Shown here: in pieces, positions 10,584-58,543 of the stretch
Numbering within the stretch: position 1 is the stretch's first letter
Layout: the number at the start of each line of letters is the position of its first letter
Source of the DNA: an uncultured Chloroflexia bacterium
GTDB taxonomy: Bacteria > Chloroflexota > Anaerolineae > Fen-1058
Assembly: GCA_963844815.1 (NCBI GenBank)
Contig: CAWJPR010000001.1
Span: 8,096-72,095, forward strand
Direction: 5' to 3'
Length of the DNA stretch: 64,000 bases
The notes under the pieces: model-generated
What the model was told of the DNA's origin: nothing
What the model saw: only the letters and a program-made list of their open reading frames with translations
Database searches by the model: none
Program-made: the position numbers and the translations under genes

Positions 10584-10700
10584 CAGTCAGTCGTCAGTCG
10601 TCAGGAATCAGTAGACAGAAGCCAGAAGGCAGAAGTCGGAGACAGAAGGCAGAAGTCAGGAGGCAGAAGATAGCATTCAGCGGTCAGCGGTCAGATCGTT
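10584..10700. repeat. Heptanucleotide-periodic tandem array (~17 units, consensus CAGNAGN)
   Basis: cagtcgt cagtcgt caggaat cagtaga cagaagc cagaagg cagaagt ... agcggtc agcggtc. Lies in the 5' region of the DUF4097 lipoprotein gene. Confidence 0.7.
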
Positions 10701-11034
10701 ATACCGCACTGCCGCACAGGGGGCCTATGGGCACGCACGAAGTCCCCGCAGTACCACTGACGCAAAGTGTCGGGCATGGGCAAGCGCAGTGGGAATGGGT
10801 GCAATTGTAGTACACTGGGGGCAAAATAGCACTTTTCTGACTCACGGTCGGCGTCAGCCAGTGGGCCTCGACATCGGCGGCGTCGCGCCCGTGCGCGTGC
10901 CGGTGGAGTTGTTGGTGGTGGAGGTGGAGCGGGTGTTCTTGCCGATGATTCGGCGGTAAATCGCGCGGCGCTGTTGCCGTACTGGCAACAGGTCACCTCT
11001 ATGCTGTGGTCATCTTTTACAGCAGAGGTGACCC

Positions 11035-11241
11035 ATGTTTGGCAAGAAGGATGAAAAGCAGAATCGGCTGGAGCGCATGGTGGAGATCATTGCGAAAGCG
11101 CCTGGCGGCATTACCCAGGCAGCCTTGGCCCGCCTGTTGGGCGTGACGCGCTCGACAGTGAACAAGGATTTGGGGGCGCTGGAGAAACGCGGCGTGCGTT
11201 TGTCAGAGGATCATCGAGGACGGTTGCACCGCTCGGATTGA
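11035..11241 (+). CDS. Small HTH DNA-binding protein (resembles the N-terminal HTH of WYL/DeoR-type regulators)
   Basis: 68 aa; ...ITQAALARLLGVTRSTVNKDLGALEKRGV.... The start codon sits inside a 15-bp-stem hairpin (10991..11033). Confidence 0.5.
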   Translation: MFGKKDEKQNRLERMVEIIAKAPGGITQAALARLLGVTRSTVNKDLGALEKRGVRLSEDHRGRLHRSD

Positions 11242-11334
11242 GCAGGCCCGGGAGTATTCGGCAACGGGGGAACATAAAGTGTTTCCATTATTCACTACAT
11301 GTTGTGCTATGCTGTTGTCGTAAAGGAGCGAACG

Positions 11335-12297
11335 ATGAGCAAAGGCTTGAGCCGCGCCGAGCGACTGCGCGAGATGGAACGGCTATATCTTGAGCATGGA
11401 TGGACCGACATTGAGATGGCTGAGCGGTTAGGCGTAGACCGCACGACGGTTTACAAGGATCGCGATCTGCTCTCCAGCGAGTGTCCAATTGAGCCTGACG
11501 ATGACGGGCGCTACAAAATCAACCGGACACGTTACCTGTCCCACATCCGGGTCAACGCCTACGAAGCACTGGCGCTGTATTTGCCCGCGCGGCGCGCGGC
11601 GCGACAGACGTTGGTGGCGCAGCCCCATATCGCCAAGGGGCTGGAGAAGTTAGCCGTTGCGCTCAAGCGGCCCATGACTGAGCGCCTAGTGAAAGCGGCG
11701 AACATCATCCTGGCACAGGCGGCTCTGCCTGAACGAGTGGCAATTATGGAAACGGTGACACGCGGCTGGATCGAACAGCGCAAGATTCGCCTCGCTTACC
11801 GAGGCTTGCGCGCGAGGCAGACCGGCCACCACATCGTCAAACCTTATCTGATCGAGCCGTCACTCTGGAGTGATGGATCATACGTGATCGGCCACAGCGA
11901 TTATTTTGACGACATCGCAGTGTTCAAGATCGAGCGGATTGAATCTGCCGAACTGAAACTTGAGACGTTTGAGATTCCAGAGGATTTCGACGAGCAGCGT
12001 ATGCTGCGCTACGCGTGGGGCATCTGGTCGAGCGAAGAAGAACCGGTCACCGTGCGGCTTAAGTTCAGCGGGCATGAAGCCATCACGCGCATGAAGGAAA
12101 CCATCTGGCATCCGCTCCAGGCCAAGCCTCTGGACCAGCCCGACGGCGACTGCCTCTGGGAAGCGCCCATCGCCGAATGGCAGGAGATGCTGCCGTGGGT
12201 GAGAGGGTGGGGGGCCGATGTGGAGGTGATCGCACCGGAGGAGTTGAGAGAGAAGTTGATGCGCGAAGCGCAGAAGATGGCGGAGCTGTATCAGGTG
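11335..12297 (+). CDS. HTH-WYL-domain transcriptional regulator (CRISPR-associated WYL type); the reading frame continues without a stop into cas3
   Basis: RBS aaggag; N-terminal HTH (EMAERLGVDRTTVYKDRDLL). WYL core (EPSLWSDGSYVIGHSDYFDDIAVFKIERI). Characteristic C-terminal VEVIAPEELREKLMREAQKMAELYQ. Host-like GC (~58-60%). Confidence 0.7.
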
Positions 12298-14760
12298 ATG
12301 GAAATGAAAAAACAACTGATTGCCCACATCCGCGAAAAAGACAAAGCGCGTCAGTCTCTTATCGAGCATTTGACAGTAGTTTCCAAACTTGCAGGGCAGT
12401 TTGCCAGCAAGATTGGGTTGAAAGAGGCAGGTGAAATTCTCGGACTGCTCCATGATTTTGGCAAGGCAAGCGAACAGTTTCAGAATTATTTGCTGTCTGG
12501 AGCCGGTGAGAAAAATCCAGACGCAGATGGCTACATTGACCCAGAGGCAATGCGTGGAAAAATTGACCACTCAACCGCAGGCGCGCAGGTGCTTTACGAA
12601 AATCTTTGGAGCAAAGGGCAGAAGGAAAAAATCGCCGCGCAGGTGCTCACCCTATGTGTCGCTTCCCATCACTCAGGGTTGATTGACTGCCTTGCGCCAG
12701 ACGGAGAAAACAACTTTAAGCGGCGCATGGAAAAAACGGATAAAGATACTCACAAGTCAGAGGCATTATCAAATTTACAGGGAATCGAAACCGCGTTCAA
12801 AGATCTACTCTCGAAAAATGTTGTAGACCAAATCGTGACAAAACTGCAAAGCCTGAAAGAGGAATCCAATGAATCACAGACCAACCTAAATTTCAAAGCG
12901 GGATTGCTTGTCCGTTTTCTGCTCAGTTGCCTGATCGACGCAGACAGGCTCGACACTGCCGATTTTGAGTCCCCAGGCAATGTCCGCATCCGTAACTATG
13001 GGCAATATCACCCTTGGGAGATTTTAATTGAGCGCTTGGAAGACAGGTTAAAGGCGTTTGAGAAAAAGAACGAAGTGGATGAATTGCGCGCCCAGGTGTC
13101 GCAAGCCTGCTTTGAGTTTGCCGTGAAGCCAAAGGGCATTTATCAGTTGACCGTCCCGACAGGCGGCGGCAAGACGCTGGCAAGCTTGCGGTTTGCGTTG
13201 AACCATGCCAGAGAGCACTCAATGGAAAGAGTGTTTTACGTTATTCCTTACACTCTCCATCATTGACCAGAACGCCGAAGAAATCAGAAAGATTTTGGAA
13301 GATACGGACAAAAACGGCAAGTATTTGGATAGAGTGGTTCTTGAACACCACTCCAATTTGATGCCCGAAGAAGAAAGTTACAGGCAGAACCTGCTGGCGG
13401 AAAACTGGGACGCGCCGGTTGTCCTCACGACACAAGTTCAATTTCTGGAAGCGTTATTTGGCGGGCATACGCGCAGCCCGCGCAGAATGCACCAGTTGGC
13501 AAACTCGGTGATTATTTTGGATGAAGTGCAGACCGATCCCAATCAACATGATTCACATGTTGAACCTTGCGCTTCGTTTTCTCGTTCATACTGCGGCGCG
13601 ACAGTCGTGCTTTGTACTGCAACACAGCCGCCGCTTGACAAGCTGGAAAATCCCTATCGCGCTTTAATCATCACCCCGAGCAGCGCATCATCCAGAATGA
13701 GGGAACTATTCGAGCGGTTGAAGCGTGTCGAAGCGTTTGATAAGCGCAAACTCGGTGGATGGAGCGAGGAGGAAGTGGCGGAATTGGCTGAGAGAGCAAT
13801 TGCAAGAAAAAGGCAGCGTGCTGATTGTGGTCAACACCGAGAATCGGCCAAAGCGCTGTATCAAGCCAATCGAACAGGAAAATCGCAGGCGTGCAATCTA
13901 TCATCTCAGCACGAACATGTGTCCTACCCACCGCCTGAATGTACTGAATGAAATCAAAGACGAAACTTAAAGCCGAAAAGAAGCCTGTGATTTGCGTCAG
14001 CACGCAACTCATCGAAGCGGGCGTGGATATTGACTTCGGCGCGGTTATCCGCTATCTGGCAGGGCTGGATTCGATTGCCCAATCAGCAGGGCGGTGCAAC
14101 CGTCACGGAGTGCGCGAGGGATTGGGGAGCGTCTGGGTGGTCAATCCACAGGAGGAAAATATCGAAAGATTGCAGGACATCAAGATCGGCGTGAACAAGC
14201 CCAACGCGTGTTAGACGAATTCGAGAAGAACCCCGAATAGTTTGGAAATGAGCGAATTGGCCTGTACGCGATTGCCGCGTATTACAAGTATTACTACTAC
14301 GAACGAAGAAATGAAATGGAATATCCAGTCGGCGAAAGTCGTCCGCGGAACAAGATGATACGTTGTTCAACTTGCTCTCGACAAATACGCTTTCAGTGGA
14401 CGCATACAAGAGAATTCATAAAGCCGTGCCCGAAATCCTTTTGGGCAGTCATTTCAAACCGCCGCAAAGGAATTTCGGGTGATTGACTCAGCCACGCGGG
14501 GCGTGATCGTTCCATACAAGGAAGGTGATGAGATTATCAAAGACCTGTGCGGCGCGTTTGAGTTGGACAAGCAGGGTAAACTACTCAAAAGGGCGCAGCG
14601 GTATTCCGTTAATTTGTTTCCAACATGAATTCGAAAATTGGCTAAAGTGGGAGCCATCCATGAGGTACAGGCAGGAACAGGGGTTTACTATCTCAATGAA
14701 GCAATACTACAGTGAAGAGTTTGGCTGGAGCGATGAGCCAGTCAATGACATGAAGTTCTT
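12298..14760 (+). pseudogene. cas3: cas3 (type I-C HD nuclease/helicase), fragmented by at least 4 frameshifts
   Basis: HD domain (HLTVVSKLAGQFASKIGLKEAGEILGLLHDFGK, CVASHHSG, CLIDADR). Walker [55 protein letters not shown] and a Cas3 C-terminal domain lie in successive different frames (13205.., 13725.., 13948.., 14525..). GC ~48%. Confidence 0.8.
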
Positions 14761-14790
14761 ATCGGCGAGCGCACTTCAAATTCAACCGAA

Positions 14791-15413
14791 ATGCAACATG
14801 AATGTCGTGGTCGAAAACAATCGAAGTCTAATCAAAACAGCGTAACGTTCAAGGTGTGGGGCAGGTACGCCCTGTTCACCGACCCGCTGACCCGCATTGG
14901 CGGCGAAAAATACTCCTACCAAATTCCCACATACGAGGCATTGAAAGGAATTTTGAGCTCGGTGTATTGGAAACCGACCATCGTATGGGTGATCGACAAG
15001 GTGAGGGTGATGAAGCCCATCCGCACGCAGACCCGCAGCGCAAAGCCAATAAAGTATTCGCTGGCGGAAATGACCTTTCAATTTATACCTATCTCTCGGA
15101 TGTCGAGTATCAGGTGCAGGCGCATTTCGAGTGGAATGAAAATCGCTAAGACCTGGCGCATGACAGCAATGAGAACAAGCATTTCTACATTGCACGGCGG
15201 ATGATCGAGCGCGGCGGCAGAAGGGATGTGTTTCTCGGAACACGGGAATGCCAGGGATATGTCGAGCCGTGTAAATTTGGCGAAAAGGGCTTTTACGACG
15301 ACTATGGCGAAATGTCCTTCGGGCTGATGTTTCACGGCTTTGATTATCCCGATGAAGGCAAGCTGGCGATTTCTGGCACGCTTCTGGCGGCCGAAAATGG
15401 ATTGACGGCGTAA
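14791..15413 (+). pseudogene. cas5: cas5c (Cas5d), at least 2 frameshifts
   Basis: [60 protein letters not shown], then [25 protein letters not shown] and [17 protein letters not shown] in other frames. Confidence 0.8.
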
Positions 15414-15544
15414 TCCAGTTATCCGCCCCGAGGGATTGCAAAGGATTCGCAAGTTTGTGCGCCCGATGAAATCCAATCCGCCCGCCACGATTGGACTAGA
15501 AGAAGAAGGTTGCTCGAAGGCTACAGGAAGGGAGGGCGTGAGAT

Positions 15545-17392
15545 GAACTGGAGCAAAGTTTGTATGAGACATACGAGAATTGTCAAAACATGATTGGCTA
15601 TACCCAGATGACAATGATGTTCCGCTTCTTCCAATATGTCACATTACTGCAAAAGGCGCAGATTGAAATAGTGATAGATGGCAAAGGCGATTTTCGAGAG
15701 AGCACGAGTGTACACAAAGAAGACTCAAGGACAATTATTCCCTGCACCGAAAGCTCTGGCGGCAGCAGAGCTGGGAGTAAGCCGAGCGCATCCCTTATGT
15801 GACAAATTGCAGTACCTTGCTGGCTGATTACCTGACTACGGCGGAGTAAGAGACTCCTAGTTTTGCCAAAGATCCAATGAACCATATGGAATTTTATTAT
15901 CGCTGACTGAATGGTGTCATTCGCAATACACCCACCCAAAAGCCTGTGCAGTTTAGCAATATACCAAAAGGAAACTCTGAATGCAAGATCTAGTAAATCA
16001 CAGGATTTTGCTTGCTAGATGCAAGTGGAAAATTATTGTCCAAAGATAGGTGAAAAGAGAGAAAAATCCAAGGATATCTTCGATTCGTGGTTCTGACCAC
16101 TGCAAGATAGTGCAGGTGCTTTATACGGTGGGAAGTGGAAATTCCTGGACGATTCGAATCGAGAGTCTGGAGCGATGAAGTAATCCAACTTTGGGAATAG
16201 TTGGACTAACTTACTACTTAAACACAAAGATGAAAGAGACATTTGTCTAGGTACCGGGCGAGAAAAATTTATCGCTGACCACCATCCCGAAATACATCCG
16301 AACGATGGGGATAATGCCAAGATAATTTCACCAAACGATACTAGTGGATTCACTTTCCGGGACGTTTCTCTACAGTCAAGACCAAGCGGCGTGGGGCTGG
16401 AGACGACACAAAAAGCCCATTTATGCCCTTCGCTGGCTAATTAGCCGACAAGGCTATTTAGGCAGGAGATTTGGCGGTTGTCGCTTGGGCATTTCGGGCG
16501 CAAACCTGCCCCAGCCGACAGATGATCCATTATCCGGCCCTGATATGGCGACTTACCGCCTGAAGAAAGCAAAGACGGCTGAACTGCTCAGGATATTGGC
16601 CATTCAGACTGAAAAAGAAAATCGCTGGATATCGTCAAGAGATCGGTGAACGTAAGATGTAGTTGTCATGGCAGTGGATTCTGCCACACCGGGGCGGTTG
16701 GCCATCGTCTATTACCGTGCCCTGAAGGCTCCGAGTTCCTGCGAGCGAATTGAAGACTGGCATGAATCTTGTGCTTGGCGGCACATATCGCTCGATCAAG
16801 TTCAGGATCAACAAAGCGGAAAACTAAAAATGTTATATCCCTTTTCATTGGTGCTCCTGCCCCAGCCGATATTGCGGAAGCCGTCCTATGGACGCCGCCT
16901 AGATGACAAACTCCGGAAAGCCAGATCAAACGCCTGCTCCCCTGTATCGTGGACGGTCAGCCCATCCCGCGTGATCTTGTTGAGTCGGTGGTCAGGCGGG
17001 CGTCCAATCGGGCGGGAATCAGAAACCCGGATGAAAAAAATACGTGGGATGGAGATTTACATGGAAGAAAACTCTCAGCATCGCCTGTGCATTATTCGAA
17101 AACACAAAGATGGAAAGGAGAATTACGAGATGGCACTCGATGAACAGAAAGACGAGAGATATCTCTATGGAAGGCTACTCGCCTTGCGGAAAATCCTTGA
17201 AGAATGGGCGTTAAACAAAGCCAAGGAAAATCGGCCGACGAATGCTGCCCGATTACATGCAACGATTCTTCGGAACACCCATATCAGTACATGGGAACGA
17301 TCGAATGATCGCTTACTCCCTACAAGGCGAGGCTTGGCGGAAAGTCAAATAACGCCAGCGAATGATAGATGAAGTTATTGCTTCTTCAATCT
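15545..17392 (+). pseudogene. cas8c: cas8c (Csd1) remnant, heavily degraded (stops in all frames, AT-rich middle)
   Basis: N-terminus MNWSK..YETYENC. C-terminal blocks CIVDGQPIPRDLVESVVRRASNRAG and YEMALDEQKDERYLYGRLLALRKILEEWAL...RPTNAARLHATILRNT lie in two different frames. 15800-16350 is ~40-45% GC with no long ORF. Confidence 0.65.
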
Positions 17393-17539
17393 GAAGATTT
17401 TACAACGATAAGCGGTTAAGCGGAGAATTTTTGATTAGGCTACCATTGCCAACGAGAATATCTACGCAGGAACACCCGACGAATTGCAAATAAAGAAAAT
17501 AACAATCTGAAACAACCAGATAATTCAACCATATCATGA

Positions 17540-18450
17540 TAAGGAGAATTTACCATGACTACCTTAATCGAATAAAATTGACTTTGCCGTAATTATTTGT
17601 GTCAACAATGCCAATCCCAACGGCGACCCGCTCAACGGCAACCGCCCGCGTACCAATTACGAAGGCCTCGGCGAAATGTCCGATGTTTCCATCAAGCGCA
17701 AAATCCGAAACCGCCTGATGGATATGGGCAAATCCGATCTTTGTTCAATCCGATGACAACCGAGTGGACGATTATCGAAGTCTGCGTGACGGGCAGAAGC
17801 GACGCTCAAGGGTGTTGACCAGGACAAAAAGAAATATCGGGAAGCGGCCTGCAAGCATGGCTGGATGTGCGCGCTTTTGGGCAGGTCTTTGCGTTCAAGG
17901 CAAAAAGGGAAGAAGAGCGAAGGTGAAGAGGAAGCGATGGCGTTTCCATTCCCGTACGTGGTCCTGTTTCAATTCATCCTGCTTTTTCAGTGGCTTCCTG
18001 TGCTGGACCGCGTAACCAGCATTCAAATCACCAAAAGCGTCAGCGGCGAAGCCGGCGGAAAAGCGCGGCTCGGACACCATGGGTATGAAGCACCGTGTTG
18101 ATCACGGCGTCTATGTCTTCTATGGCAGCATGAATCCGCAGCTTGCCACAAAAACGGGATTTTCGGATGAGGATGCCGAAGCCATCAAAGAGGCATTGAG
18201 GACACTGTTCCGCAATGACGCCTCGTCTGCGAGGCCTGAAGGAAGCATGGAAGTTTACAAAGTGTATTGGTGGAAGCATAACAACCACAATGGGCAATAT
18301 TCTTCAGCCAAAATACACCGTTTGCTTGATGTGACAGTGAAGCCCAAGAGTAGACAGAACCAAAGAGTATCGGAGATTACGACATTACTCTGAACGAACT
18401 GCCTGGCCTGGGATGTGAAGTGATAGATGGCGATAGGAAATTGCTTCGAC
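17540..18450 (+). pseudogene. cas7: cas7c (Csd2), frameshifts and an early stop
   Basis: KIDFAVIICVNNANPNGDPLNGNRPRTNYEGLGEMSDVSIKRKIRNRLMDMG; later GMKHRVDHGVYVFYGSMNPQLATKTGFSDEDAEAIKEALRTLFRNDASSARPEGSMEV in another frame. The ATG at 17558 is followed by a stop 6 codons later. Confidence 0.75.
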
Positions 18451-18469
18451 CAATTTGGCGCTCGCAATG

Positions 18470-19110
18470 ACAGGATAATGAAGTCCGAATACACCCCGAA
18501 GACCTGCTGCCGCTTTCGGGCATCCAGCACTTCCTGTTCTGCCGCCGGCAGTGGGCGTTGATCCATGTTGAGCGGCAGTGGCAGGAGAACGCGCTCACTG
18601 CCGAAGGCCGGCTTCATGCACAAGCGCATGGATGATCCTTCTTCACCGAAATGCGGAACGGGGTGATCACGGCGCGGGCGGTGCCGGTCGCCTCGTACCG
18701 TCTGGGGCTGTCGGGCGTGTGCGATGTGGTCGAGTTCACCGAGTCGCCGGAAGGTGTTAAGCTGCCGGGACGGAAGGACTGTACCTGCCTGCGCCGGTGG
18801 AATACAAACGCGGCAAGGAAAAACACGATCACAGCGACGAGGCGCAGCTATGCGCCCAGGCCATGTGCCTGGAAGAAATGCTGTCGGTGACCATCCCCAG
18901 AGGATATCTGTATCTACGGCGAGACCCGCCACCGGGTTGAGGTGGAGTTGACGCTGAGCTGCGGAGCCTGGTGCAGGACATGGCAGATGAAATGCATGGC
19001 TATTTCAGCGCGGCTACACCCCCGCGTCAGACCGTCCAAGGCCTGCCGTTCCTGTTCGCTGGCCGATATCTGCCTGCCGAGTTTGCAGGAGAAAGGATGC
19101 ATGCCAGCTT
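18470..19110 (+). pseudogene. cas4: cas4 (RecB-like nuclease with C-terminal Cys cluster), multiple frameshifts
   Basis: [77 protein letters not shown] and C..CSLADICLP are spread over three frames. Confidence 0.7.
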
Positions 19111-19124
19111 CGAAATACATCCGA

Positions 19125-20190
19125 CAGCAGATCGAGAGCACGCTTAAGACTCATGAAGAAACTTGGCAATGTTCTGTATGTCACCACTCCCGAAGCCTAT
19201 CTCTCCCTGGATGGCGAAAATGTCGTCGTCAAGAAGGAACTGAGCATGGCTCTTCGACGCGCCTGCCACTGCACAACCTGGAAAACATCGTCTGCTTCAC
19301 TTAGCAGGGAGCCAGCCCGGCGTTGATGGGCGCCTGCGCCGATCGTAATATCGGTTTGTGTTTCCTCACCCCCAACGGAAAATTCCAGGCGCGGGTCACC
19401 GGCAAGGTAAAGGGCAATGTGCTGCTGCGCAAGAAACAGTACGAATGTCTCGGAGAAGGACAGACAGAGCGTCCCAATTGCCGCCTCCTTCCTGCTGGGC
19501 AAGATCGCCAACTGCCGCAAGGTGATCGAACGCGCCGTCCGCGATCATGCCATGCTGGTGGACGTACCGGCGCTCACCAGGCGCTCCGCCTGTCTGAAGG
19601 AGACGCTGCGCGCCATCCCACAGTGTAAATCGATCGGCGAACTGATGGGCTTCGAAGGCAGCGCGGCGAAAATCTACTTTGGCGTGTTCGATCAGCTGAT
19701 CCTGCAGCAGCGCGAGGAGTTTTTTTCAAGGAACGCTCCCGCCGTCCGCCGCTGGACAACATGAACTAGCTTGCTTTCGTTCCTGTATACCCTGTTGACG
19801 AACGAAGTCGCTTCTGCCCTGGAAACGGTGGGGCTGGACCCCTATGTTGGCTTTTTGCATCAGGACCGTCCTGGGCGTCCTTCGCTGGCGCTGGACTTGA
19901 TGGAAGAGCTGCGCCTGTCTTTGCCGACCGCCTGGCGTTGTCACTGGTGAACCGTAAACAGATCACTGGCAAAGGATTCACACAAAAGGAAAGCGGCGGC
20001 ATCCTGATGGACGATGAGACCCGAAAAGCGGTATTGACCGCCTGGCAGGAGAGAAAAAAAGAGGAGATCCTGCATCCTTATCTCAAGGAACAGATTCCCT
20101 TTGGATTGATCCCCCATGTCCAGGCGATGCTGCTGGCGCGCTATCTGCGCGGCGACCTGGACGCCTATCCGCCATTCTTCTGGAGTTAGC
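19125..20190 (+). pseudogene. cas1: cas1 (type I-C), multiple frameshifts
   Basis: MPASKYIRQQIESTLKTHE.., [104 protein letters not shown] and a terminal YPPFFWS sit in at least 5 frame segments. Confidence 0.85.
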
Positions 20191-20206
20191 GATGCGATGA
20201 TGGTTC

Positions 20207-20566
20207 TTGATCACATATGATGTGAACACGGAAACCGGCCGGGCAAAAAGCGTCTGCGCAAAGTGGCCAAAGAAATGTCAGAATTATGGTCAGCGCGTGC
20301 AGAACTCGGTCTTTGAGTGTCTGATCGACCCGGCCCGTCTGAAGCAATTGCAGAAGTCCCCTGGCAAAATCATCGATACCGAAAAGGATAGCTTACGTTA
20401 TTACTACCTGGGAGATCACTGGAACACACGGGTCGAGCATGTGGCGCCAAAGCCAGGCTTGACCTGGAGGGAACGATCATTGCCTGAAAGTCCGTTCTGC
20501 GAACCCGAAGTTCACATGAAAACCGGGAACGGTTCGCAGGGAATTTGCACTTTAACAACCTGATAT
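20207..20566 (+). pseudogene. cas2: cas2, two closely spaced frameshifts in the N-terminal third
   Basis: MMVLITYDVNTETGR, then KKRLRKVAKEM in the +2 frame, then CQNYGQRVQNSVFECLIDPARL..DSLRYYYLGDHWNTRVEHV back in the original frame. Confidence 0.75.
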
Positions 20567-20665
20567 TTCTCAATCCACAGTGATTTTCTGTTTATTCTTG
20601 ACTTTACCTGTATGATGAAAGCACAATATCTGGGGGGCAGGTGGCCTGCTGCACCAGATATTGCG
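20567..20665 (+). promoter_or_regulatory. CRISPR leader (cas2-proximal, AT-richer)
   Basis: ~100 nt between cas2 and the first repeat: tatttctcaatccacagtgattttctgtttattcttgactttacctgtatgatgaaagc.... Confidence 0.5.
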
Positions 20666-21348
20666 GTCGCCCCTCATGCGAGGGGCGTGGATTGAAACAT
20701 TCGTCGAGGCGCTGGCGGAAAAGGTGCACATGTCGCCCCTCATGCGAGGGGCGTGGATTGAAACCCATCGACAAGGACAACTGCTACGAGATCGAGTCGC
20801 CCCTCATGCGAGGGGCGTGGATTGAAACAGCCAGGCCCAGCGTAATGGCAATGCCGCGCCAGTCGCCCCTCATGCGAGGGGCGTGGATTGAAACCTCAGT
20901 CAGCCCGGTGTCGCCGCTGGTCATCAGGTCGCCCCTCATGCGAGGGGCGTGGATTGAAACACGCCCAACCAGCGGGCGCGGTCGCGCACGAGATGTCGCC
21001 CCTCATGCGAGGGGCGTGGATTGAAACATGTGCTCCTGGTCGTTTCCGCATCTGAGGAAAGGTCGCCCCTCATGCGAGGGGCGTGGATTGAAACCCTAGT
21101 GTCGGTGATCTTTGGCGCGCCAAAATGCCGGTCGCCCCTCATGCGAGGGGCGTGGATTGAAACAGCGGGACGAGCGGCCATGTTACACCGTCAACTGATG
21201 TCGCCCCTCATGCGAGGGGCGTGGATTGAAACACGGAGAGCAGCATGCCTAATAAGAATTCGTTCCGTCGCCCCTCATGCGAGGGGCGTGGATTGAAACC
21301 CGTCCAGCGCCATGTCACGGGTTAGGGAAGCCAGTCGCCCCTCATGCG
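20666..21348 (+). CRISPR. CRISPR array part 1: 10 full 33-nt repeats plus a 15-nt repeat stub interrupted by the IS; type I-C-like repeat GTCGCCCCTCATGCGAGGGGCGTGGATTGAAAC
   Basis: Repeats at 20666, 20732, 20796, ... 21268; spacers 31-36 nt. The repeat ends GTGGATTGAAAC with an internal GCCCCTC/GAGGGGC stem. The final unit is truncated after ...CTCATGCG at 21348. Confidence 0.95.
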
Positions 21349-21565
21349 TGTTTTTGTCAAGCGAAAAGTAGGCCATTTGATGATCGAAAATGGAGCCAGA
21401 GGGTATCAGTTAACCGTAATGTGTTGATCGAAAACAGGGCCAGTTGCTGATCGAAAAGAGGGCCACGGGAGCTACGGCGAGGCTGGCCGCCGTCGTCGCC
21501 GTAGGGGCTGTGGACATGTGGGCAACTGGGCTGTTGCAGTTGTCCACATGTCCACAACCCAGACC

Positions 21566-22330
21566 TCACGGGCCGTGCCCGTTGGTCCGGGCCGCTTGTT
21601 GCTGTCGTTGCCGAAAGCGATAGGACTCACCGATAAATTCCAGGATATGGGCGCGATGCGTGAGCCGATCGAGCAAAGCGCCCGTCAAACGTTCATCGCC
21701 AAAGACCTGCGTCCAATCGGTAAAGCGCAAATTGGTGGTGATAATCAACGCCACGCGTTCGTAGAGTGCCGAGCAGACCTGAAACAACAGCTGCGCACCG
21801 CTGGCCGTAAACGGGATAAAGCCGAGTTCATCGATCACCACCACGCTGTTGAGCAAGCCGTTCAAAACTTTGGGGAGTTGGTGTTTGTCCTGAGCCAGCA
21901 GGAGTTCATTGACCAAGCCAGCGGCATTGTAGAAGCGGACGCGGCGACCTTGGCGACAGGCGGCGAGCGCCAACCCGGTCGCGAGATGGGTTTTCCCTAG
22001 GCCGGGATTGCCGATCAAGATTAAGGGCTCGGCCTGCTCGATGTAAGCGCCCCGCGCCAGATCCAATACGGTCAGTTTAGCCGGGCTGGTCAAGCAACTG
22101 AAGTCGAAATCGGCCAAGTCTTTGAGCACGGGCAAGTGGGCGGCCCTGATGCAACGTGTTTGAAGGTTCTTGTCGCGTTGCATCACTTCGAGTTCCGCCA
22201 GCGCCAGCAGGTAGTGCTCGTAGTCATGATGATTGCGGGTGGCGTCTTCGGCCACGACCCGATGTTGGCGCACGAAGGTTGGCAAGCGCAGTTGTTTCAG
22301 ATAGGTGTCGAGCAGCAAGGTTTCGGCCAT
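21566..22330 (-). CDS. istB: IS21 helper ATPase IstB
   Basis: 254 aa; Walker A LIGNPGLGKTHLATGLA; IS21 IstB signature blocks. Confidence 0.9.
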   Translation of the reverse strand: MAETLLLDTYLKQLRLPTFVRQHRVVAEDATRNHHDYEHYLLALAELEVMQRDKNLQTRCIRAAHLPVLKDLADFDFSCLTSPAKLTVLDLARGAYIEQAEPLILIGNPGLGKTHLATGLALAACRQGRRVRFYNAAGLVNELLLAQDKHQLPKVLNGLLNSVVVIDELGFIPFTASGAQLLFQVCSALYERVALIITTNLRFTDWTQVFGDERLTGALLDRLTHRAHILEFIGESYRFRQRQQQAARTNGHGP

Positions 22331-22333
22331 GGC

Positions 22334-51329: not shown

Positions 51330-52889
51330 TTGTTCGCGTCATCCTCGCCACGCGCGCGGCGCGCGCCGCGCTCATTGATCATCGAGCACCTTGCCCCCTC
51401 GCGGAGATGGGCGGTAATCATTGCCATGTCAGTGCTGATTGGCTCATTGGCCATCGCGCTCTTACCCGTGACCACAGCCATCGGGCTGGCGCTGATTGCC
51501 GCCGTGGTGGTGGGCACGCTGCTGGAACCGGGAATCGGCTTGATCGTCACGCTGCTGGTCGGGCCGTGGGCGGCGTGGATGAACACGTACACGCCCGGAC
51601 TGCTGCCGATCGATGCGGGGCAGATCATGGTGGGCTTCACGCTGGGCGCGTGGGTGCTGGGCGGCCTGGCCCGGCGCGAATTCGTCATTCCCCGATCGCC
51701 CCTGCTGATCCCGCTTGGCTTATTTGTGGGCTGGGCGGCGCTGTCCATGCTGTGGGCGCCCGATCTGGCTTTCGGCCTGCCTGAAGTGATCAAGTGGGTC
51801 GAGATCATTCTGGTCATGCTGCTGGCCATTGATGTGGCGCAGCGGCGCGGCGCACAGTGGATTCTGACGGGGGTCTTCACGACGGCGGCGCTGCAGGCGC
51901 TCATCGGTATCTACGAAGCGCGCATTCGGGGAGCGGGGCCATTGGGCTTTCAACTCTCTACAGGCGTCTACCGCGCCTACGGCACGTTCGAGCAGCCCAA
52001 TCCATTTGCGGGGTTCGTCGGGATGGTGCTGCCGATCGCCATCGCAGTAACTGCGTATTACGCGCTGCGTGTTGCGCATTCATTTCGCGCCCGCAACTTG
52101 CCATGGATTACGCCTGACGCCTTGCGTTTTGCGTGGCACGCCCTGGTCACGCTCTTGCTGGCCGCCGGTCTCTATCTGTCTTTTTCGCGCGGCGCATGGC
52201 TGGGCACGGCGGCGGCGATCGGAGCCATCATCGTGTTTGCGCCCCGGCGGTTGTGGATAGGCCTGGCGCTGGGCGCAGTCGCGCTGCTGGGACTGGTCGC
52301 ACTGTCGGGCGCGGGGCTGCTGCCTGCCGCCATCAGCGAACGGCTGGCGGACGCGGGCACCTTGCTGGAAATCCGCGATGTGCGCGGCGTTGCAATTAAC
52401 GACGCAAACTACGCGCTGATCGAGCGGCAGGCGCACTGGCAGGCCGCGCTGAACATGCTGACCGGGCACCCGTGGACGGGCGTCGGTTTCAGCAACTATC
52501 AACCGCTGTACGAACAATATCGCCTGCTGAACTGGCCCATGCCGCTGGGTCATGCTCACAACATCTATCTGAACGTCGCCGCCGAAACCGGGGTGATCGG
52601 GTTGGGGTTGTATCTGCTGTTATGGATCAGCGTCTTTGTGCTGACGTTTCGCGCCATCCGCCGGGCGCAGGGTTTCGATCGGGCGGCAGCCGTGGGGCTC
52701 ATGGGCGCCTGGGTCTTCCTGAGCACGCACATGCTGGTCGACAACCTGTACGTGAACAATACGCATCTGATGATCGGCGCATTGTTTGGACTGCTCGCCG
52801 TCATCGCGGGACGCGCGCTTCATCCGGCATCCAACCCCACAGGGGCGCTTCACAGCCTCCACGCGGGGCGTCCAACTTCCAACATCTAA
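51330..52889 (+). CDS. Polytopic membrane protein, O-antigen ligase/polymerase-like (Wzy_C-type)
   Basis: At least 10 predicted TM helices with a large periplasmic loop; the start may be an internal Met at ~51426. Confidence 0.5.
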   Translation: MFASSSPRARRAPRSLIIEHLAPSRRWAVIIAMSVLIGSLAIALLPVTTAIGLALIAAVVVGTLLEPGIGLIVTLLVGPWAAWMNTYTPGLLPIDAGQIMVGFTLGAWVLGGLARREFVIPRSPLLIPLGLFVGWAALSMLWAPDLAFGLPEVIKWVEIILVMLLAIDVAQRRGAQWILTGVFTTAALQALIGIYEARIRGAGPLGFQLSTGVYRAYGTFEQPNPFAGFVGMVLPIAIAVTAYYALRVAHSFRARNLPWITPDALRFAWHALVTLLLAAGLYLSFSRGAWLGTAAAIGAIIVFAPRRLWIGLALGAVALLGLVALSGAGLLPAAISERLADAGTLLEIRDVRGVAINDANYALIERQAHWQAALNMLTGHPWTGVGFSNYQPLYEQYRLLNWPMPLGHAHNIYLNVAAETGVIGLGLYLLLWISVFVLTFRAIRRAQGFDRAAAVGLMGAWVFLSTHMLVDNLYVNNTHLMIGALFGLLAVIAGRALHPASNPTGALHSLHAGRPTSNI

Positions 52890-53377: not shown

Positions 53378-53384
53378 GGCGCCC

Positions 53385-53900
53385 ATGTCTCAACTGATCA
53401 CGCTGGCGAAAACCAACCGCAACGAGTTCAAGCGCTTCACGAAGTTCCTGGTAGTGGGGGTCACCGGCTTCATCGTGGACTTCGGCATTTTCAACCTGCT
53501 GCTGCGCGCCTTGAACTTTCCGCCGGTGCTGGCGCAGGCGATTTCCTTTACCTCGGCGGCCATCAACAACTTCGTCTGGAACCGTTACTGGACTTATCCC
53601 GATTCGCGCAGCAAACCGCTGCTGCGGCAGTTCGGCATGTTCTTCGTGCTGAGCGTGATCGGCCTGCTGATCCGCACGCCGATCTTCGCGCTGTTCAGCG
53701 GCCCGATGGTGGCGTTGGTCGAAACGATGCAGTCTGGCGTGTTCGCCGGGGTAATCAATTTCGTGACCGGCACGCTGCACATCTCGATCGAGCAGTTGGG
53801 CCTCAACCTGGCGCTGGCTGTCGCCGTGCTGGTCGTGCTGTTCTGGAACTTCTTCTCGAACCGCTTTATCACGTACGGCGACGTGAAATTTGGCAAATGA
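53385..53900 (+). CDS. GtrA-family membrane protein (tandem paralogue)
   Basis: KFLVVGVTGFIVDFGIFNLLL... FVWNRYWTY. Confidence 0.7.
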   Translation: MSQLITLAKTNRNEFKRFTKFLVVGVTGFIVDFGIFNLLLRALNFPPVLAQAISFTSAAINNFVWNRYWTYPDSRSKPLLRQFGMFFVLSVIGLLIRTPIFALFSGPMVALVETMQSGVFAGVINFVTGTLHISIEQLGLNLALAVAVLVVLFWNFFSNRFITYGDVKFGK

Positions 53901-55151
53901 AAGTCGGCATCGACTACACCTCCGCCGCCACGCAAGGCGCCGGCATCGGCCGCTACACCCGCGAGTTGCTGCGCGCGCTGCTGGCGCTGCCCTCGGATAA
54001 CCGCTATACCTTCTTCTACGCCAGTCCGAAAAGAATGCGGAATGCGGAATTCGCGAATTCGGAATTCCGCATTCCGCATTCGTCATTTGCCGTTCCACGA
54101 CAAGTGGCTGATGCGCGCCTGGCACCGGCTGCGCCTCCCGATCCCCGTCGAGCTGATCGTCGGCAAAGTCGATCTGTTTCATTCGCCCGATTTCACACTG
54201 CCCCCCACCCTGCCCGGCGTGCCGACGCTGCTGACCGTGCACGATCTGTCCTTTATCCGCGATCCCGATTCAGCCTGGCCGAGCCTGCGCGCCTTTCTCA
54301 ATCAGGCCGTGCCGCGCTCGGTGAAGCGCGCCACGCGCGTGCTGGCCGATTCGCAGGCGACGAAGGACGATCTGATCGAGTTGTTGGGAACGCCCGCCGA
54401 GAAGATCACGGTGCTGTACAGCGGCGTCGAGGCCCGCTTCAAACCGGTGCGCGATCAGGCCGAGATCGATCGGGTGTGCGCGAAGTATCAACTGCCCCGG
54501 CCGTTCATTCTGTCCGTCGGCACGCTGCAGCCGCGCAAGAATTACGGGCGGCTGATTGAGGCGTTCGGGCAGTTAGTCGCCGCGCATGCTGAGCGGAACG
54601 CAGTGGAGTCGAAGCACGCGCGGAACGCAGTGGAGTCGAAGGATGCGCAGCAGTCCACTCAATTGCATTCTTCGACTTCGCTTCGCTCCGCTCAGAATGC
54701 GTGGCATTTAGTCATCACCGGCGGCAAAGGCTGGATGGTCGAATCGATCTTCGAGCAGGTCAAGCGATCGGGGCTGGAGGGCCGCGTGCACTTTCCCGGC
54801 TTTGTGGACGACGCCGATCTGCCCGCGCTCTACTCCGCCGCCGAGGTCTTCGCGTATGTGTCGTTGTACGAAGGTTTCGGCCTGCCGCTGCTGGAAGCGA
54901 TGGCGTGCGGCACGCCCGTCATCGGGTCCAATGCGTCGTCGCTGCCGGAAGTGATCGGCGAGGCGGGACTGCAAGTCGATCCGCGCGACGTGGACGACAT
55001 CGCCCGCGCCCTGCAGCAGATGATCGATCAGCCGGAGCTGCGCGAGAGATCGATCGAGTTGGGGCTGGAGCGCGCGAAGTTGTTCACGTGGGACAAGGCC
55101 GCGCGGGAACTGCTGGCGATCTACGAACAGTTGAGACCTCGAAGGTTTTAG
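53897..55151 (+). CDS. GT4-family glycosyltransferase (Glycos_transf_1), interrupted by a 49-bp palindromic insertion (frame change) and a 114-bp in-frame repeat-element insertion
   Basis: The N-terminus MKVGIDYTSAATQGAGIGRYTRELLRAL (frame of 53897) continues after 54081 in the frame of ORF 54042..55151 (...VDLFHSPDF..., EGFGLPLLEAMACGTPVIGSNASSLPEV). Confidence 0.65.
54033..54081. repeat. 49-bp (7 x 7 nt) palindrome GAATGCG GAATGCG GAATTCG CGAATTC GGAATTC CGCATTC CGCATTC inside the glycosyltransferase gene
   Basis: Two 20-nt arms are exact reverse complements around GCGAATTCG. The length is not a multiple of 3, giving a +1 frame change. Confidence 0.7.
54589..54706. repeat. Dispersed palindromic repeat element inserted in frame (38 codons: AERNAVESKHARNAVESKDAQQSTQLHSSTSLRSAQNAW) in the glycosyltransferase
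   Basis: GCGGAACGCAGTGGAGTCGAAG x2 ... CTTCGACTTCGCTTCGCTCCGCTCAGAATGC; same family as 28420-28795 and 41000-41110. Confidence 0.55.
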
Positions 55152-55547
55152 CCTGACAATCAGGCTTGCCGTGGTCGTCGATCAACGCCGCGGGCAGGCT
55201 GTGCTTCCTGAAATGAGAAAACCTCCGAGGTCTTGTCGGTTTTACCTTTTCCCTGCAAGTGTTGTATCATGAGGGCGCACCCTCGCGCGGAGTGCATCCA
55301 TGACCACAACCCTCCCCCCAAGCGTCCCCGGTTTCATCTCGGCTATCTAATCGTCGCAGCGATCCTGGCTTTCATCCTGTTTTTCGGCAGTCTGGCGCTC
55401 TTTCCCGAATGGGGTCAATCGATCGGCATACTGCTTGCGCTGATCAGTCATCATCGCTGCTGCTGTCGTGACGTTTCTGGCCGACTGGCGTACCGCCTTC
55501 GCGCCAAAGTCGCAGGAACAATCGTCAGCACACAGGATGACAGATCA

Positions 55548-57960
55548 CAAATGTCACAACAGGCCGCGCCCGATCCCCTCGCGCAATATTTCCATCAACT
55601 TCCCCCGCCGCCGGGTGACTTCGTGGGGCGCGAGGAGGAACAACGCGACCTGCTGGAGAGCATCGAGCGCGGCGCAGTGATCACGGGCCTGCGCGGCATG
55701 GGCGGCATCGGCAAGACGGCGCTGGCGCTGGTCATCGCCCATCAACTCAAGGCGCGTTATCGCGACGCGCAGTTCTTCCTCGATTTGCGCGGCGCGGGCG
55801 ATAATCCCGTCACGCCGCTCGAGGCGCTGACGCACGTCGTCCGCGCTTTTTACCCCACGTCCAAACTGCCCGACAGTCTTGAAGAAATGCAGAAGTTGTA
55901 TCGATCGGAATTGGACGGCAAACGCGCCTTGGTCTTCTTCGACAATGCCAGAGACGCCCGGCAGGTGATGCCGCTCTTGCCTCCGGCATCCTGCCTCCTG
56001 CTCATCACCTCGCGCGAGCATTTCACGCTGCCGGGCTTGAAGGCCAAGGACTTGAATGTGCTGCCGCCCGATAAGGCGCGCGAGTTGTTGACTGAGCATT
56101 GCAGATCGACTCGACGGCGTCATCCCGAGCCGCGAAGCGGCGAAGCGATCTCCCGGCCGATCACCGAGATTCCTCGCCGCCTGCGGCGGACTCGCAATGA
56201 CGACGATCCCTGGTCGCCGACCTCATCGCGCAGTTGTGCGGCTACCTGCCGCAGGCCCTGCGCGCCAGCGCCAGCCTGCTGGCCGAAACGAGCGATCTCG
56301 ATCCGGTGGAGTACGCGCGGCAGTTAAGCGACGAGCGTAAACGCCTGCAGCGCATCGGCATCGATCCCGCCAGCAGCCTCGATATGGAAGCGTCGCTGAA
56401 CCTCAGTTACAGGACGCTGACGCCTGAGGCGCAGCGCGTGCTGGCCCGCCTGAGCGTCTTCCCGGCGGACTTTAGCGCCGAGGCCGAAGAAGTGATATGC
56501 GAGGACAAGGCCCACGCGCACTTGAGCCGGTTGGTGAAGTTGAGTTTGGTGCAGTTTTCTGACCCCCACCCCAACCCTCCCCCGTCCCGCGAAAAGCAGC
56601 GGTACAGGGGAGGGAGCGACACCACTCCCTTCCCCTGCGTCAGCGGGGGAAGGGTCGGGGATGGGGGTTCAGGGCCGCTACTCCCTCCACGACCTGGTGC
56701 GCCTCTTCGCCCGCGCCCGCCTGACCGACGACGAGCGCACCGCCGCCCAGCGCAGACACGCCGAGCATTACGAAAGCGTGCTGAGCGACAGTCCAAAGAA
56801 CTATACAAGCAAGGCAGTGAATCCATAGCGCAGGGCTTAGCCCTGTTTGACCGCGAATGGGTCAACATTCAAGCCGGGCAGCAGTGGGCACAGCCAAGCC
56901 GATGATGCGCAATGTGCAGTGACTATCCCGACGCAGGCGATATGTACTTGACCTGCGCAGCATCCGCGCGAGATTCGCTGGCTGCAAGACGCGCTCACTG
57001 CAGACGCATCGGCACCTCGGGCTCAAATACTGCCGACCTCGGCGAAGCGCAAGGCGATTGAGTTCTATGAAGAGTCATCGATCGCGAAGGTGAGGCGCGG
57101 CGAAGGCATGCTGGGCAACCTCGGCATCGCCTACGCCGACCTCGGCGAGACGCGCAAGGCGATTGAGTTCTACGAGCAGCATTGGTCATCGCGCGAGATC
57201 GGCGACCGGCGCGGCGAAGGGGCTGCGCTGGGCAACCTCGGCATCGCCTACGCCGACCTCGGCGAGACGCGCAAGGCGATTGAGTTCTACGAGCAGCATT
57301 GGTCATCCGCGCGAGATCGGCGACCGGCGCGGCGAAGGCGATGCGCTGGGCAACCTCGGCCTCGCCTACGCCGAACCTCGGCGAGACGCGCAAGGCGATT
57401 GAGTTCCACGAGCAGGCATTGGTCATCGATCGCGAGATCGGCGACCGGCGCGGCGAAGGCGCGGACCTGGGCAACCTCGGCATCGCCTACGCCGACCTCG
57501 GCGAGACGCGCCAGGCGATTGAGTTCTACGAGCAGGCATTGGTCATCGCGCGCGAGATCGGCGACCGGCGCGGCGAGGCAACGACTTGAGAACATCGGCA
57601 ACGCTCACTACAGTCTCGCCGAATACGCCGGCGATTGAGTATCACGATCAAGCGTTGCCGATTTTCCGCGAGATTGGCGACCGGCGCGGCGAAGGCAATG
57701 CGCTGGGCAACCTCGGCATCGCCTACCCGAACCTCGGCGAGACGCGCAAGGCGATTGAGTTCTACGAGCAGGCATTGATCATCGCCGCGAGATCGGCGAC
57801 CGGCGCGGCGAAGGCAATGCGCTATTCAATATGGCGTTGTCGTTGGATAGCCTGGGCGAGCGCGAAAACGCAATCGCCAATGCCAGAGCGACGTTGAAGA
57901 TTTTCGAGGCGATTGAAGATCCTCACGCGGAAATGGTGCGCCGCAAGTTGGCGGAGTGGA
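55548..57960 (+). pseudogene. STAND NTPase (NB-ARC) with C-terminal TPR array, multiple frameshifts and a GC-rich hairpin insertion (56561..56675)
   Basis: Walker A GLRGMGGIGKTALA, hhhhD ALVFFDNA, and LLITSR lie in frame 55233..56327. The NB-ARC winged-helix part lies in 56234..56905. At least 7 copies of a ~120-nt DNA repeat encoding GNLGIAYADLGETRKAIEFYEQAL.I.REIGDRRGEG are spread over at least 4 frames (57000-57960). Confidence 0.55.
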
Positions 57961-57969
57961 AGGCAGCGT

Positions 57970-58110
57970 GAAGACCTGACAGGTTTTTCAAGGCGATCTG
58001 GCCCTGGGTGTTGCACCGAAAAACCTGTCAGGTCTAGGCGAACTGAAGACCTGACAGGTTTTTCAAGGCGATCTGGCCCTGAGGCTTGCACCGAAAAACC
58101 TGTCAGGTCT
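57970..58110. repeat. Two tandem copies of a 66-nt hairpin element (17-bp stem AGACCTGACAGGTTTTT/AAAAACCTGTCAGGTCT, 28-nt loop)
   Basis: Copies at 57970..58035 and 58045..58110 differ only in the loop (GGGTGTT vs GAGGCTT). Confidence 0.6.
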
Positions 58111-58266
58111 GGTCATCGGCGTTGTTCATCCGTTGCCACGTCTCAGATGCGCTGCTTCGCTGTTGAACATCTAATCCGCTCCCAGCGGTTGATCTTGATT
58201 CCCACGGCTTACCGTTATCTTCAGGCGGCAAAAAGATCGGCGGAATTTAGATCGGACTCCGTTTTG

Positions 58267-58330
58267 GTCTACACCGCCCCGGACTCGAGCCTTGCCCGCC
58301 GCCGCAAAGCGACGGGAACGGGCAAGCCTC
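58267..58330 (+). terminator. Long GC-rich hairpin (22-bp arms CCCCGGACTCGAGCCTTGCCCG / CGGGCAAGCCTCGAGTCCGGGG); no T-tract
   Basis: Visible in sequence; may be a REP-like element rather than a terminator. Confidence 0.35.
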
Positions 58331-58480
58331 GAGTCCGGGGCGTAAATCAATTCGGAAATCGCCCTTGATAGCCATGAAACTGGATGCCCGACGCGAAGCG
58401 TGCACTCGGGCATGACGACCGGACAGTTGCTGCGCGGCGAATGTCTGGGCGTGGGAGCCCAGAGCTGCTCGAGACAGACA

Positions 58481-58543
58481 TATCACTCTTCACTTTTCAC
58501 TCTTCACTCTTACTCATCACTCATCACGCCTCACGCCCCACGA
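58481..58543. repeat. Heptanucleotide-periodic array (TTCACTC/TCACTCA/TCACGCC)
   Basis: atcactc ttcactt ttcactc ttcactc ttactca tcactca tcacgcc tcacgcc; its reverse complement is the GANNAGT family seen at 36404. Confidence 0.65.

Follow-up and report, generated by a model that had tools for sequence, protein, structure and literature searches.

The 64 000 nt stretch of an uncultured Anaerolineae bacterium (phylum Chloroflexota) considered here, referred to below as the window, contains five arrays of degenerate tandem 7 nt units, one of which forms a long palindrome within a glycosyltransferase gene of the GT4 family that now lies in two reading frames. These arrays raise the questions of what class of element they belong to, how they are made, and whether units whose length shifts the reading frame serve as genetic switches. 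We find that the window arrays represent a new host lineage for a known phenomenon, the heptameric simple sequence repeats (SSRs) that include the short tandemly repeated repetitive (STRR) sequences of cyanobacteria, and that all of their main features have precedents in other phyla. The arrays are probably produced by replication slippage together with template switching, with tracts persisting where they are tolerated or useful.

Period-7 arrays in the window

The arrays have the following composition.

Array 1, 10584-10700: direct, composite, (GTCAGTC)x2.7, then (CAGAAGN)x~8 interrupted by a phase slip, then (TCAGCGG)x2.6
Array 2, 26613-26694, plus strand: direct GACNACT/TGACNAC units, about seven good copies with degenerate ones after them
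Array 3, 5′ arm, 36404-36441, plus strand: TGACGAG TGACGAG TGAAAAG TGACGAG TGAAGAG
Array 3, 3′ arm, 36443-36480, plus strand: TCACGCG TTACGCA TGACTCA TTACTCA TTAC
Array 4, 54026-54086, plus strand: 61 nt, GAATGCG x2, GAATTCG, an extra C at 54054, GAATTCG, GAATTCC, GCATTCC, GCATTCG
Array 5, 58481-58543, plus strand: direct, pyrimidine-rich, TCACTCT/TCACTTT x4, one 6 nt unit, TCACTCA, TCACGCC x2

Tandem Repeats Finder (TRF) reported head-to-tail 7 nt units at five loci (10586-10694, 26613-26694, 36404-36474, 54033-54082 and 58483-58542), with copy numbers of 2.6-11.7. A sliding self-match test, in which at least 21 of 28 positions had to be identical at lag k, returned six regions for period 7 across the 64 kb, at exactly the same five loci. 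In the same test no region of the window appeared at lags 4-6 or 9-13, a single region appeared at lag 8 (28781-28826), and lag 14 gave echoes of three of the period-7 arrays. None of 100 third-order Markov shuffles contained a region at the self-match threshold, and the five loci listed in the initial annotation are real. Their periodicity, described there as strict, is interrupted by the extra base at 54054, by a 6 nt unit at 58511-58516 and by a phase slip in 10586-10700. Runs of identical adjacent units are at most two long in each of arrays 1-5. Array 5 had also been described as the reverse complement of the array 3 family, and in this orientation it does match the unit variants TGAAGAG and TGAAAAG of 36404-36441.

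No Rfam family matched anywhere in the window, whose G+C content is 60.4%. Crude gene calls cover ~81% of the window, and four of the five period-7 loci lie outside them; when a sixth locus with 8 nt units is counted, five of six fall in the ~19% that is not covered (binomial p ~0.001). The arrays had been linked to genes for surface or secreted products, and the neighbours are largely as described, comprising a DUF4097 lipoprotein with the lipobox LAAC, an M4 protease and a protein with C39 and SH3 domains, although the glycoside-hydrolase domain attributed to the last was not detected. The association itself is not supported: it was drawn from five loci, and arrays in relatives also stand beside PFK/UvrD and TPR genes.

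Distribution among Anaerolineae

The closest relatives of the GT4 protein (76-81% amino acid identity) come from metagenome-assembled genomes (MAGs) labelled Thermoflexales or Anaerolineae. We fetched 80 loci centred on one orthologous gene, with the neighbourhood held constant, and determined the density of period-7 arrays (number per 100 kb). Loci of relatives are cited by L numbers below.

Close clade: 17.9
Second clade (CHL1 / CFX4 / Ardenticatenaceae-like MAGs): 27.4
Other Anaerolineae, 65 loci, 1.08 Mb: 0.28
Window: 9.4

Across 1.36 Mb of related loci there were 63 arrays at period 7, compared with 0-14 at any other period; the second commonest was period 8, found in the lineages that also have period-7 arrays. 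On this sequence comparison, period-7 arrays appear to be a trait of the lineage, held by two Anaerolineae clades, and not of particular genes. The ~60- to 100-fold contrast between related lineages in the same neighbourhood makes a comparative search for its cause feasible.

The units themselves are diverse, with 48 canonical heptamers among 69 arrays, and they are 56% A+T in a genome of 60% G+C. A single motif common to all units was considered and rejected, as the enrichment of T-N-A-C is weak (36 of 69 arrays, among which orthologous arrays are not independent); T-N-A-C-G, as in TTACGCA-like units, occurs in 17 of the 69.

Coding tracts in GT4 and Wzy genes

The initial annotation had proposed looking for variation in unit number. 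Relatives' arrays do vary in both length and sequence, in the GT4 gene as in the GT4-to-C39 and ABC1-ABC2 spacers.

GT4 glycosyltransferase gene, 53897-55151, plus strand: in two frames, 53897 onwards in one and 54042-55151 in another

The 43 N-terminal codons of this gene end with FFYAS (54025), the remainder starts with LPFHDKW (54087), and array 4 lies between them. The palindrome reported at 54033-54081 is genuine, with perfect 20 nt arms (54033-54052 and 54062-54081) around a 9 nt centre and a predicted hairpin of -38.1 kcal/mol (z = -6.9). Its interpretation as an inserted sequence that frameshifts the gene is contradicted by the orthologues. In every one from the close clade, FFYAS and LPFHDKW are separated by a heptamer-periodic tract, which codes for a linker of 18-25 amino acids. 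The tract is 54 nt long in fourteen DNA loci and three proteins (P0001, P0003 and P0100), 60 nt in L003, L004 (identical to L089) and L088, and 75 nt in L008, the step from 54 to 75 being 21 nt or three units. In orthologues farther removed (L009-L014) this position is taken by a linker of 14-20 amino acids without repeats, and the GT4 tract therefore arose in place. Its units are homogenised in a species-specific manner (GAATTCC, AATCAGA, TTCCAAC, GCAATCA and others), all of them fitting TC-N-R-M-A-W, and the encoded peptide follows the heptad S-[AEN]-[FIL]-x-x-[QP]-x.

The L088 contig belongs to the same species as the window (96.6% identity over 1641 nt) and aligns with it base for base with a single gap, at 54054. 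Of the 61 tract positions 12 differ between the two, compared with 44 of 1580 flanking positions (Fisher p = 3.6e-7), so that the divergence of the tract is ~7 times that of its flanks. Five of the tract differences recur in phase with the repeat: positions 54059, 54066 and 54073 read T vs G, while 54045 and 54052 read C vs T. This is the signature of unit-level copying and not of independent point mutation. The pair provides direct evidence of in-phase, concerted turnover of units within ~3% divergence. Palindromy also differs among these alleles: L088 is mainly a direct array with an 8 nt inverted match, L004 has a 20 nt palindrome, and that of the window is the longest. Palindromy around GAATTC thus grows and shrinks within the sub-clade. 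A one-step template switch from an L088-like allele was also considered, and is not fully consistent with the data, since both arms differ between the alleles.

Heptamer tracts also occur in frame in a gene resembling O-antigen polymerases and ligases (Wzy-like) in both heptamer-rich clades, in two predicted loops and at the N-terminus.

L019, 7998-8350: tracts in the Wzy-like gene
L024, 7951-8273: tracts in the Wzy-like gene
L047, 7991-8367: tracts in the Wzy-like gene
L003, 2228-3000: tracts in the Wzy-like gene

The encoded peptides include RITDYRLRITDYG and SRLTPHASRLTPH, with loops such as RITDYRL..., SRLTPHA... and LRITHYA..., and loop tracts differ by 7 amino acids (21 nt) between L047, the shorter, and L019 and L024. 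The Wzy gene of the window (51330-52889) retains degenerate remnants only. Among in-gene arrays of relatives we used only those in Wzy and GT4, which were verified by protein alignment, because the labels given by our home-made gene caller were unreliable. The maintenance of frame in coding tracts across many species shows selection filtering the repeats.

Frame break and phase variation

By comparison with its orthologues, the window GT4 gene appears to be an off-frame variant of a normally in-frame 60 nt tract. The break is not a change in the number of 7 nt units but a single extra base at 54054 relative to L088. A simple slip of +7 nt (61 vs 54 nt) was ruled out by the 60 nt alleles in the nearest relatives and by the L088 alignment. 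The extra base may be either a genuine inactivating mutation or a one-base error of assembly. At least one other gene of the window, that for the ABC half-transporter ABC1 (34648-36398), is split near 35159 into open reading frames (ORFs) of 174 and 399 amino acids by a 1 nt deletion at CGCAT-TTTCC, and is intact in L098, L100 and L101; it could be a pseudogene or carry an assembly indel, and this second 1 nt break lessens our trust in 1 nt frameshifts of the window. The length of the source contig (653 kb) suggests a long-read assembly, and the 1.6 kb shared with L088 contains only one other indel, which is intergenic. Split GT4 genes in L001 and L002 were considered as independent OFF alleles and rejected, as these contigs are full of split genes and of indels such as TTCTTTCTACGCCAAGC. 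For annotation, frame breaks that lie within repeats of MAGs need a check against reads before they are labelled as switches or pseudogenes.

The two error-prone assemblies L001 and L002, although out of frame, were excluded from allele counts, as was L096, whose tract enters unrelated sequence near the contig end. Twenty distinct orthologous alleles are then in frame and two are not, those of the window and of L095, and a frame-agnostic pattern scan of metagenome contigs gave 12 matches, all in frame [(1/3)^12 ~2e-6]. The tract of L095 (a JGI contig) is 40 nt long, which is 54 - 14 or exactly two units fewer, and tract lengths overall are 40, 54, 60, 61 and 75 nt. The suggestion that coding copies are potential phase-variation switches is thus correct to the extent that loss of units can break the gene, as it does in L095; a balance of ON and OFF states, by contrast, is not seen.

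Programmed phase variation, in which the number of units would switch GT4, Wzy, the C39 enzyme and the M4 protease on and off, is in our judgement unlikely. What speaks for it is a unit that shifts the frame, the off-frame alleles of the window and of L095 (the latter short by exactly two units), the occurrence of tracts in GT4 and at two Wzy sites of relatives, and the ~7 times faster evolution of the GT4 tract. It also has a precedent in Haemophilus influenzae, where 7 bp SSRs upstream of hmw1A tune that gene (PMC8262952, PMC12721329). With such contingency SSRs, to which tetranucleotide repeats in lipopolysaccharide genes (PMC2651432) also belong, the window shares a unit that is not a multiple of three in a glycosyltransferase gene of a surface-polysaccharide cluster, and the existence of off-frame alleles. 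It departs from them in having few and imperfect copies, in the 20 of 22 alleles that are in frame, and in a same-species change that consists of substitutions plus a 1 nt indel, the shift relative to L088 being +1 nt and not +/-7 nt. Units of a length not divisible by three are thus found within an ORF and near promoters, but neither a long run of identical units nor common ON and OFF alleles differing by whole units accompanies them. Two identical adjacent units, the most that the window tract has, are well below the copy numbers that give high rates of slippage. Against switching stand also the arrays in the ABC operon spacer and beside housekeeping genes, and the Wzy tracts, whose lengths differ by whole multiples of 21 nt. 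A ratio of 20 to 2 is unlike that of a frequently switching contingency locus, and routine phase variation at the window arrays is not supported.

Predicted hairpins of paired inverted arrays

Array 3 fills the 85 nt spacer between the genes for two ABC half-transporters, ABC1 and ABC2. Its 5′ arm begins 6 nt past the ABC1 stop codon (36396-36398), and its 3′ arm pairs with the 5′ arm and enters the ABC2 Shine-Dalgarno (SD) sequence GGAG (36475-36478), which is followed by the ATG at 36484. The hairpin is predicted at -28.5 kcal/mol (z = -2.9). The same plan of stop codon, 5′ arm, loop, 3′ arm, TTAC-GGAG and ATG is kept in four relatives (89-95% protein identity), and the units of the arms differ, being TAACGAG/CTCGTTA in L098 and TGACGAG/TTTTCAC in L100, while L101 has a non-periodic stem. 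These three spacers fold with z = -3.3, -3.2 and -3.5 respectively.

A similar arrangement is found between the GT4 and C39 genes of L002-L006, where a purine-rich array is followed by its complement and then by a conserved TGCTAGAAT; the spacer folds with z = -4.3 in L002, -4.0 in L003 and -3.2 in L004. The counterpart of array 5 in these relatives is the 3′ arm of a hairpin after the GT4 stop codon. Array 5 of the window is thus an orphan 3′ arm, because a 3.3 kb block (55152-58480) separates it from GT4 and only GAGACAGAC (58471-58479) is left of the shrunken 5′ arm.

The block, which lies between the GT4 and C39-SH3 genes and is absent from L001-L006, contains TPR-repeat ORFs with a DNA periodicity of 236/356 nt (57032-57819) and, at 57969-58110, two copies of a 75 nt palindromic element with 18 nt arms AGACCTGACAGGTTTTTC / GAAAAACCTGTCAGGTCT. 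Related arms GAGACCTCGAAGGTTTT...AAAACCTCCGAGGTCT occur at ~55134-55235, and a hairpin with 24 nt arms at 58275-58342. With small palindromic elements at its borders, the block has the appearance of an insertion.

One further locus, overlooked by the initial annotation, carries units of 8 nt.

Sixth locus, 28718-28826: arrays of 8 nt units, GTCACCCC / TCATCTTG / ATCCCTTC x3.5, on both sides of a short palindrome, CACTTGCACCTGCGCTGCAAGTGCAGGT

It lies in a convergent spacer, next to the stop codon of a minus-strand ORF (28796-29866), and its unit family recurs in the GT4-to-C39 hairpins of L001 and L006.

Direct arrays, leader arrays and cis regulation

Array 1 occupies part of the 826 nt that separate two divergent reading frames, the gene for the DUF4097 lipoprotein (9576-10472, minus strand) and an ORF with WYL, WCX and Cas3-HD domains (11299-13266, plus strand). 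Neither of its strands folds significantly (z = -1.7 and -0.3), and no promoter- or terminator-like site was found there. Array 2 ends upstream of the M4 protease gene, 63 nt from its ATG (26757), and its last unit provides the -35 element of a promoter-like sequence, GTGACA-16 nt-TATACT (26681-26708, 10 of 12 consensus matches). The array is unstructured (minimum free energy, MFE, -6.8; z = 0.06) and contains CAACTGA, CTACTGA and CCACTGA, the unit TAACTGA being absent. The M4 protease (26757-27911) lacks an N-terminal signal peptide and has a short start segment that includes ILPPHML; we take it to resemble the protealysin-like subgroup, in which case it may not be a classical secreted enzyme. 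Array 5, also unstructured (MFE -2.6; z = +1.0), ends 41 nt from the ATG of the C39-SH3 gene (58584), and array 3 ends at the SD sequence, 5 nt before the ATG region.

Extended -10-like motif TGCTAGAAT, 58548-58556, plus strand: directly 3′ of array 5, with the ATG (58584) of the C39-SH3 gene 28 nt further on

This motif, read from an alignment of orthologous upstream regions, is common to the window, L002-L005 and L084; a consensus scan that required a -35 hexamer returned nothing at 58548-58556.

In relatives, arrays of CAATCTC, GATCTCY or TTCCAAY units reach the GT4 or Wzy ATG, and no SD sequence is present.

L007, 5034-5090: leader array at the ATG
L019, 9770-9811: leader array at the ATG
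L024, 7422-7468 and 9771-9808: leader arrays at the ATG
L047, 9768-9812: leader array at the ATG

Leader units contain CTCC, the complement of GGAG. These features suggest that initiation on such leaders is independent of an SD sequence. Other arrays of relatives include GGGATYA in L001 (7004-7042), ATACTGA in L077 (7738-7806), one base from TAACTGA, and TTGGTCA in L008 (6492-6533).

The positions of these arrays bear on a second alternative, that they are multimeric sites for a single-strand RNA- or DNA-binding protein or a transcription factor that sets translation or transcription of the downstream gene, a role that has been proposed for the TAACTGA repeats of Beggiatoaceae. We regard this, too, as unlikely. 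In its favour, arrays meet the GT4 or Wzy ATG where an SD sequence is lacking (L007, L019, L024, L047 and L077), array 3 ends at the ABC2 SD sequence, promoter-like sites adjoin arrays 2 and 5, both of which are strikingly unstructured, and the CNACTGA units of array 2 and ATACTGA units of L077 are one base from TAACTGA (PMC4679880). The variety of units, however, argues against a single sequence-specific binder, arrays occur on both sides of genes and within coding loops, and at one orthologous site the units are wholly replaced between species while the architecture is kept.

Relation to known repeat systems

The STRR heptanucleotide repeats of heterocystous cyanobacteria (Calothrix, Nostoc and Anabaena) have been known since 1990, their canonical units being CCCCAGT, TTGGTCA and CAACAGT. 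The likeness of the window arrays to STRR sequences, noted from the outset, is upheld, and they are of the same kind as other heptameric SSRs too. Common to STRR sequences and the arrays studied here are tandem 7 nt units, the presence of several families per genome, a mostly intergenic location and restriction to certain lineages. The Anaerolineae arrays differ in their host, a member of the Chloroflexota with 60% G+C, in the many arrays that are paired as hairpins and in conserved in-frame coding tracts. In the strict sense they are not STRR sequences, as no unit of the window is canonical and its closest kin are MAGs of Thermoflexales/Anaerolineae; TTGGTCA units, identical to cyanobacterial STRR2, are confined to L008.

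Repetitive extragenic palindromic (REP) sequences and the bacterial interspersed mosaic elements (BIMEs) are intergenic hairpins, stable stem-loops that lie after stop codons or between cistrons at conserved positions. Stable stem-loops after stop codons at conserved positions are likewise found here, but they form no single dispersed sequence family, as their arms are heptamer arrays that differ by locus and by species.

For GGGAATC in Xanthomonas and GGGGAYT in Nostoc (Rehm et al. 2015, PMC4692102), an excess of heptameric SSRs has been described, along with inverted pairs in convergent arrangement and arrays that keep their position but vary in length, and a 2007 survey, as cited there, found heptamer SSRs to be over-represented in many bacteria (PMC4692102). 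The arrays of the window and its relatives share with these repeats a period-7 intergenic excess, convergent inverted pairs able to form stem-loops, and the same position in related species with length and sequence differing; the GGGATYA array of L001 resembles their G-rich type. Most units here, by contrast, are not G-rich and form no G-quadruplexes, far more unit types are present, and coding tracts are in frame.

In Beggiatoaceae, some cyanobacteria and Bacteroidetes, TAACTGA repeats lie directly beside start codons, and copies within genes map to the periphery of the protein (MacGregor 2015, PMC4679880). That system resembles the present one in its heptamer direct repeats near start codons, in its patchy distribution and in occasional ORF copies at protein peripheries, and array 2 has CNACTGA units. 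Its repeats often take the place of an SD sequence, and in several relatives of the window arrays likewise run up to the ATG. It differs in its one dominant unit, where dozens occur here, and array 3 is the sole array of the window to adjoin a start region. The present case adds a phylum, the Chloroflexota, to the hosts of such repeats: our literature search found no paper that pairs heptanucleotide or heptamer repeats with Chloroflexi, Chloroflexota or Anaerolineae.

Origin of the arrays

If the arrays arise as we favour, replication slippage would make and remodel tracts, with units gained, lost and homogenised, and intra-strand template switching at quasi-palindromes, a type of mutation reviewed in PMC7202029, would copy one arm onto the other. 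A tract would last only at sites that tolerate it or profit from it. Where two inverted arrays follow a stop codon, as in array 3 and the orthologues of array 5, the RNA or DNA would fold into a hairpin with a probable role in terminating or stabilising the transcript of the upstream gene, and in the case of array 3 the putative hairpin abuts the SD sequence of the next gene. The single unstructured arrays 2 and 5, at promoter-like sequences, and array 1, in a divergent spacer, may be passengers or weak modulators. A tract within a gene would be retained only if it sits in a loop or linker and has an in-frame length; the GT4 linker and the two Wzy loops of relatives are instances. For the window GT4, the inactivating mutation, if real, would have arisen while the tract became a longer perfect palindrome.

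Several observations weigh against this explanation. Slippage alone predicts neither a unit of 7 nt nor restriction to two clades. Some unit families recur at unrelated loci and across species, for example TGA[CA]GAG, TTACGCA-like units and the TTGGTCA of L008, which hints at sequence selection or at spread between loci. The conservation of the hairpins rests on separate folds for each sequence; RNAalifold on the array 3 hairpin gave 0 double-sided changes because the repeat register is ambiguous, the ABC1-ABC2 spacer of L097 folds no better than shuffles overall (z = -0.75), and the T-run of an intrinsic terminator is absent 3′ of the hairpins. Finally, the related loci were sampled around only two gene neighbourhoods.

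Another conceivable reading is that the tracts are made by an active process confined to certain lineages, such as a particular replication or repair factor or an enzyme dedicated to the task, which is common to the scattered bacteria with STRR-like repeats, the tracts then being used as evolvable modules. We think this rather improbable. If it were true, the process would be shared by Nostocales, Microcystis, Beggiatoaceae, Xanthomonas and some Bacteroidetes, and the modules would comprise leader sequences, variable linkers and hairpins that grow behind genes. In that case the tracts of GT4 and Wzy would constitute a low-frequency, heptamer-based variation system for cell-surface polysaccharide, and the contrast between sister lineages (~18-27 vs 0.28 arrays per 100 kb in one orthologous neighbourhood) would let phylogenetic profiling find the factor.

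It is most improbable that the 49 bp palindrome is a mobile element resembling a miniature inverted-repeat transposable element (MITE) inserted in GT4: other palindromic elements exist in the window and excision of 54033-54081 does restore an ORF of 401 codons, but this is an arithmetic coincidence, since clade orthologues all carry the 18-25 amino acid coding tract, L088 aligns through it with one gap, a target duplication is absent and excision would remove a linker kept even by distant orthologues. An origin of the arrays in chance or assembly artefact is just as hard to credit, for although the single-base gene breaks of the window may be errors and L001 and L002 look error-prone, no shuffle reached the threshold and arrays of this kind occupy orthologous positions in dozens of assemblies made independently of one another, among them JGI and MEGAHIT-style (k141_) contigs.

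The neighbouring type I-C CRISPR-Cas locus

A type I-C CRISPR-Cas locus extends from 11299 to 26206, with arrays at 20665-21164 and 24427-26206 that share a 33 nt repeat, GTCGCCCCTCATGCGAGGGGCGTGGATTGAAAC. The ORF at 11299-13266, which borders the spacer of array 1, fuses WYL, WCX and Cas3-HD domains. The I-C cas genes are fragmented into a Cas3 C-terminus, Cas5d in two parts, Csd1 fragments and partial Cas7 and Cas1, and the Cas5d profile is partly missing, so that the operon looks like a case of real decay. Within the second array, 24966-25133 is a near-perfect duplication of spacers plus repeats.

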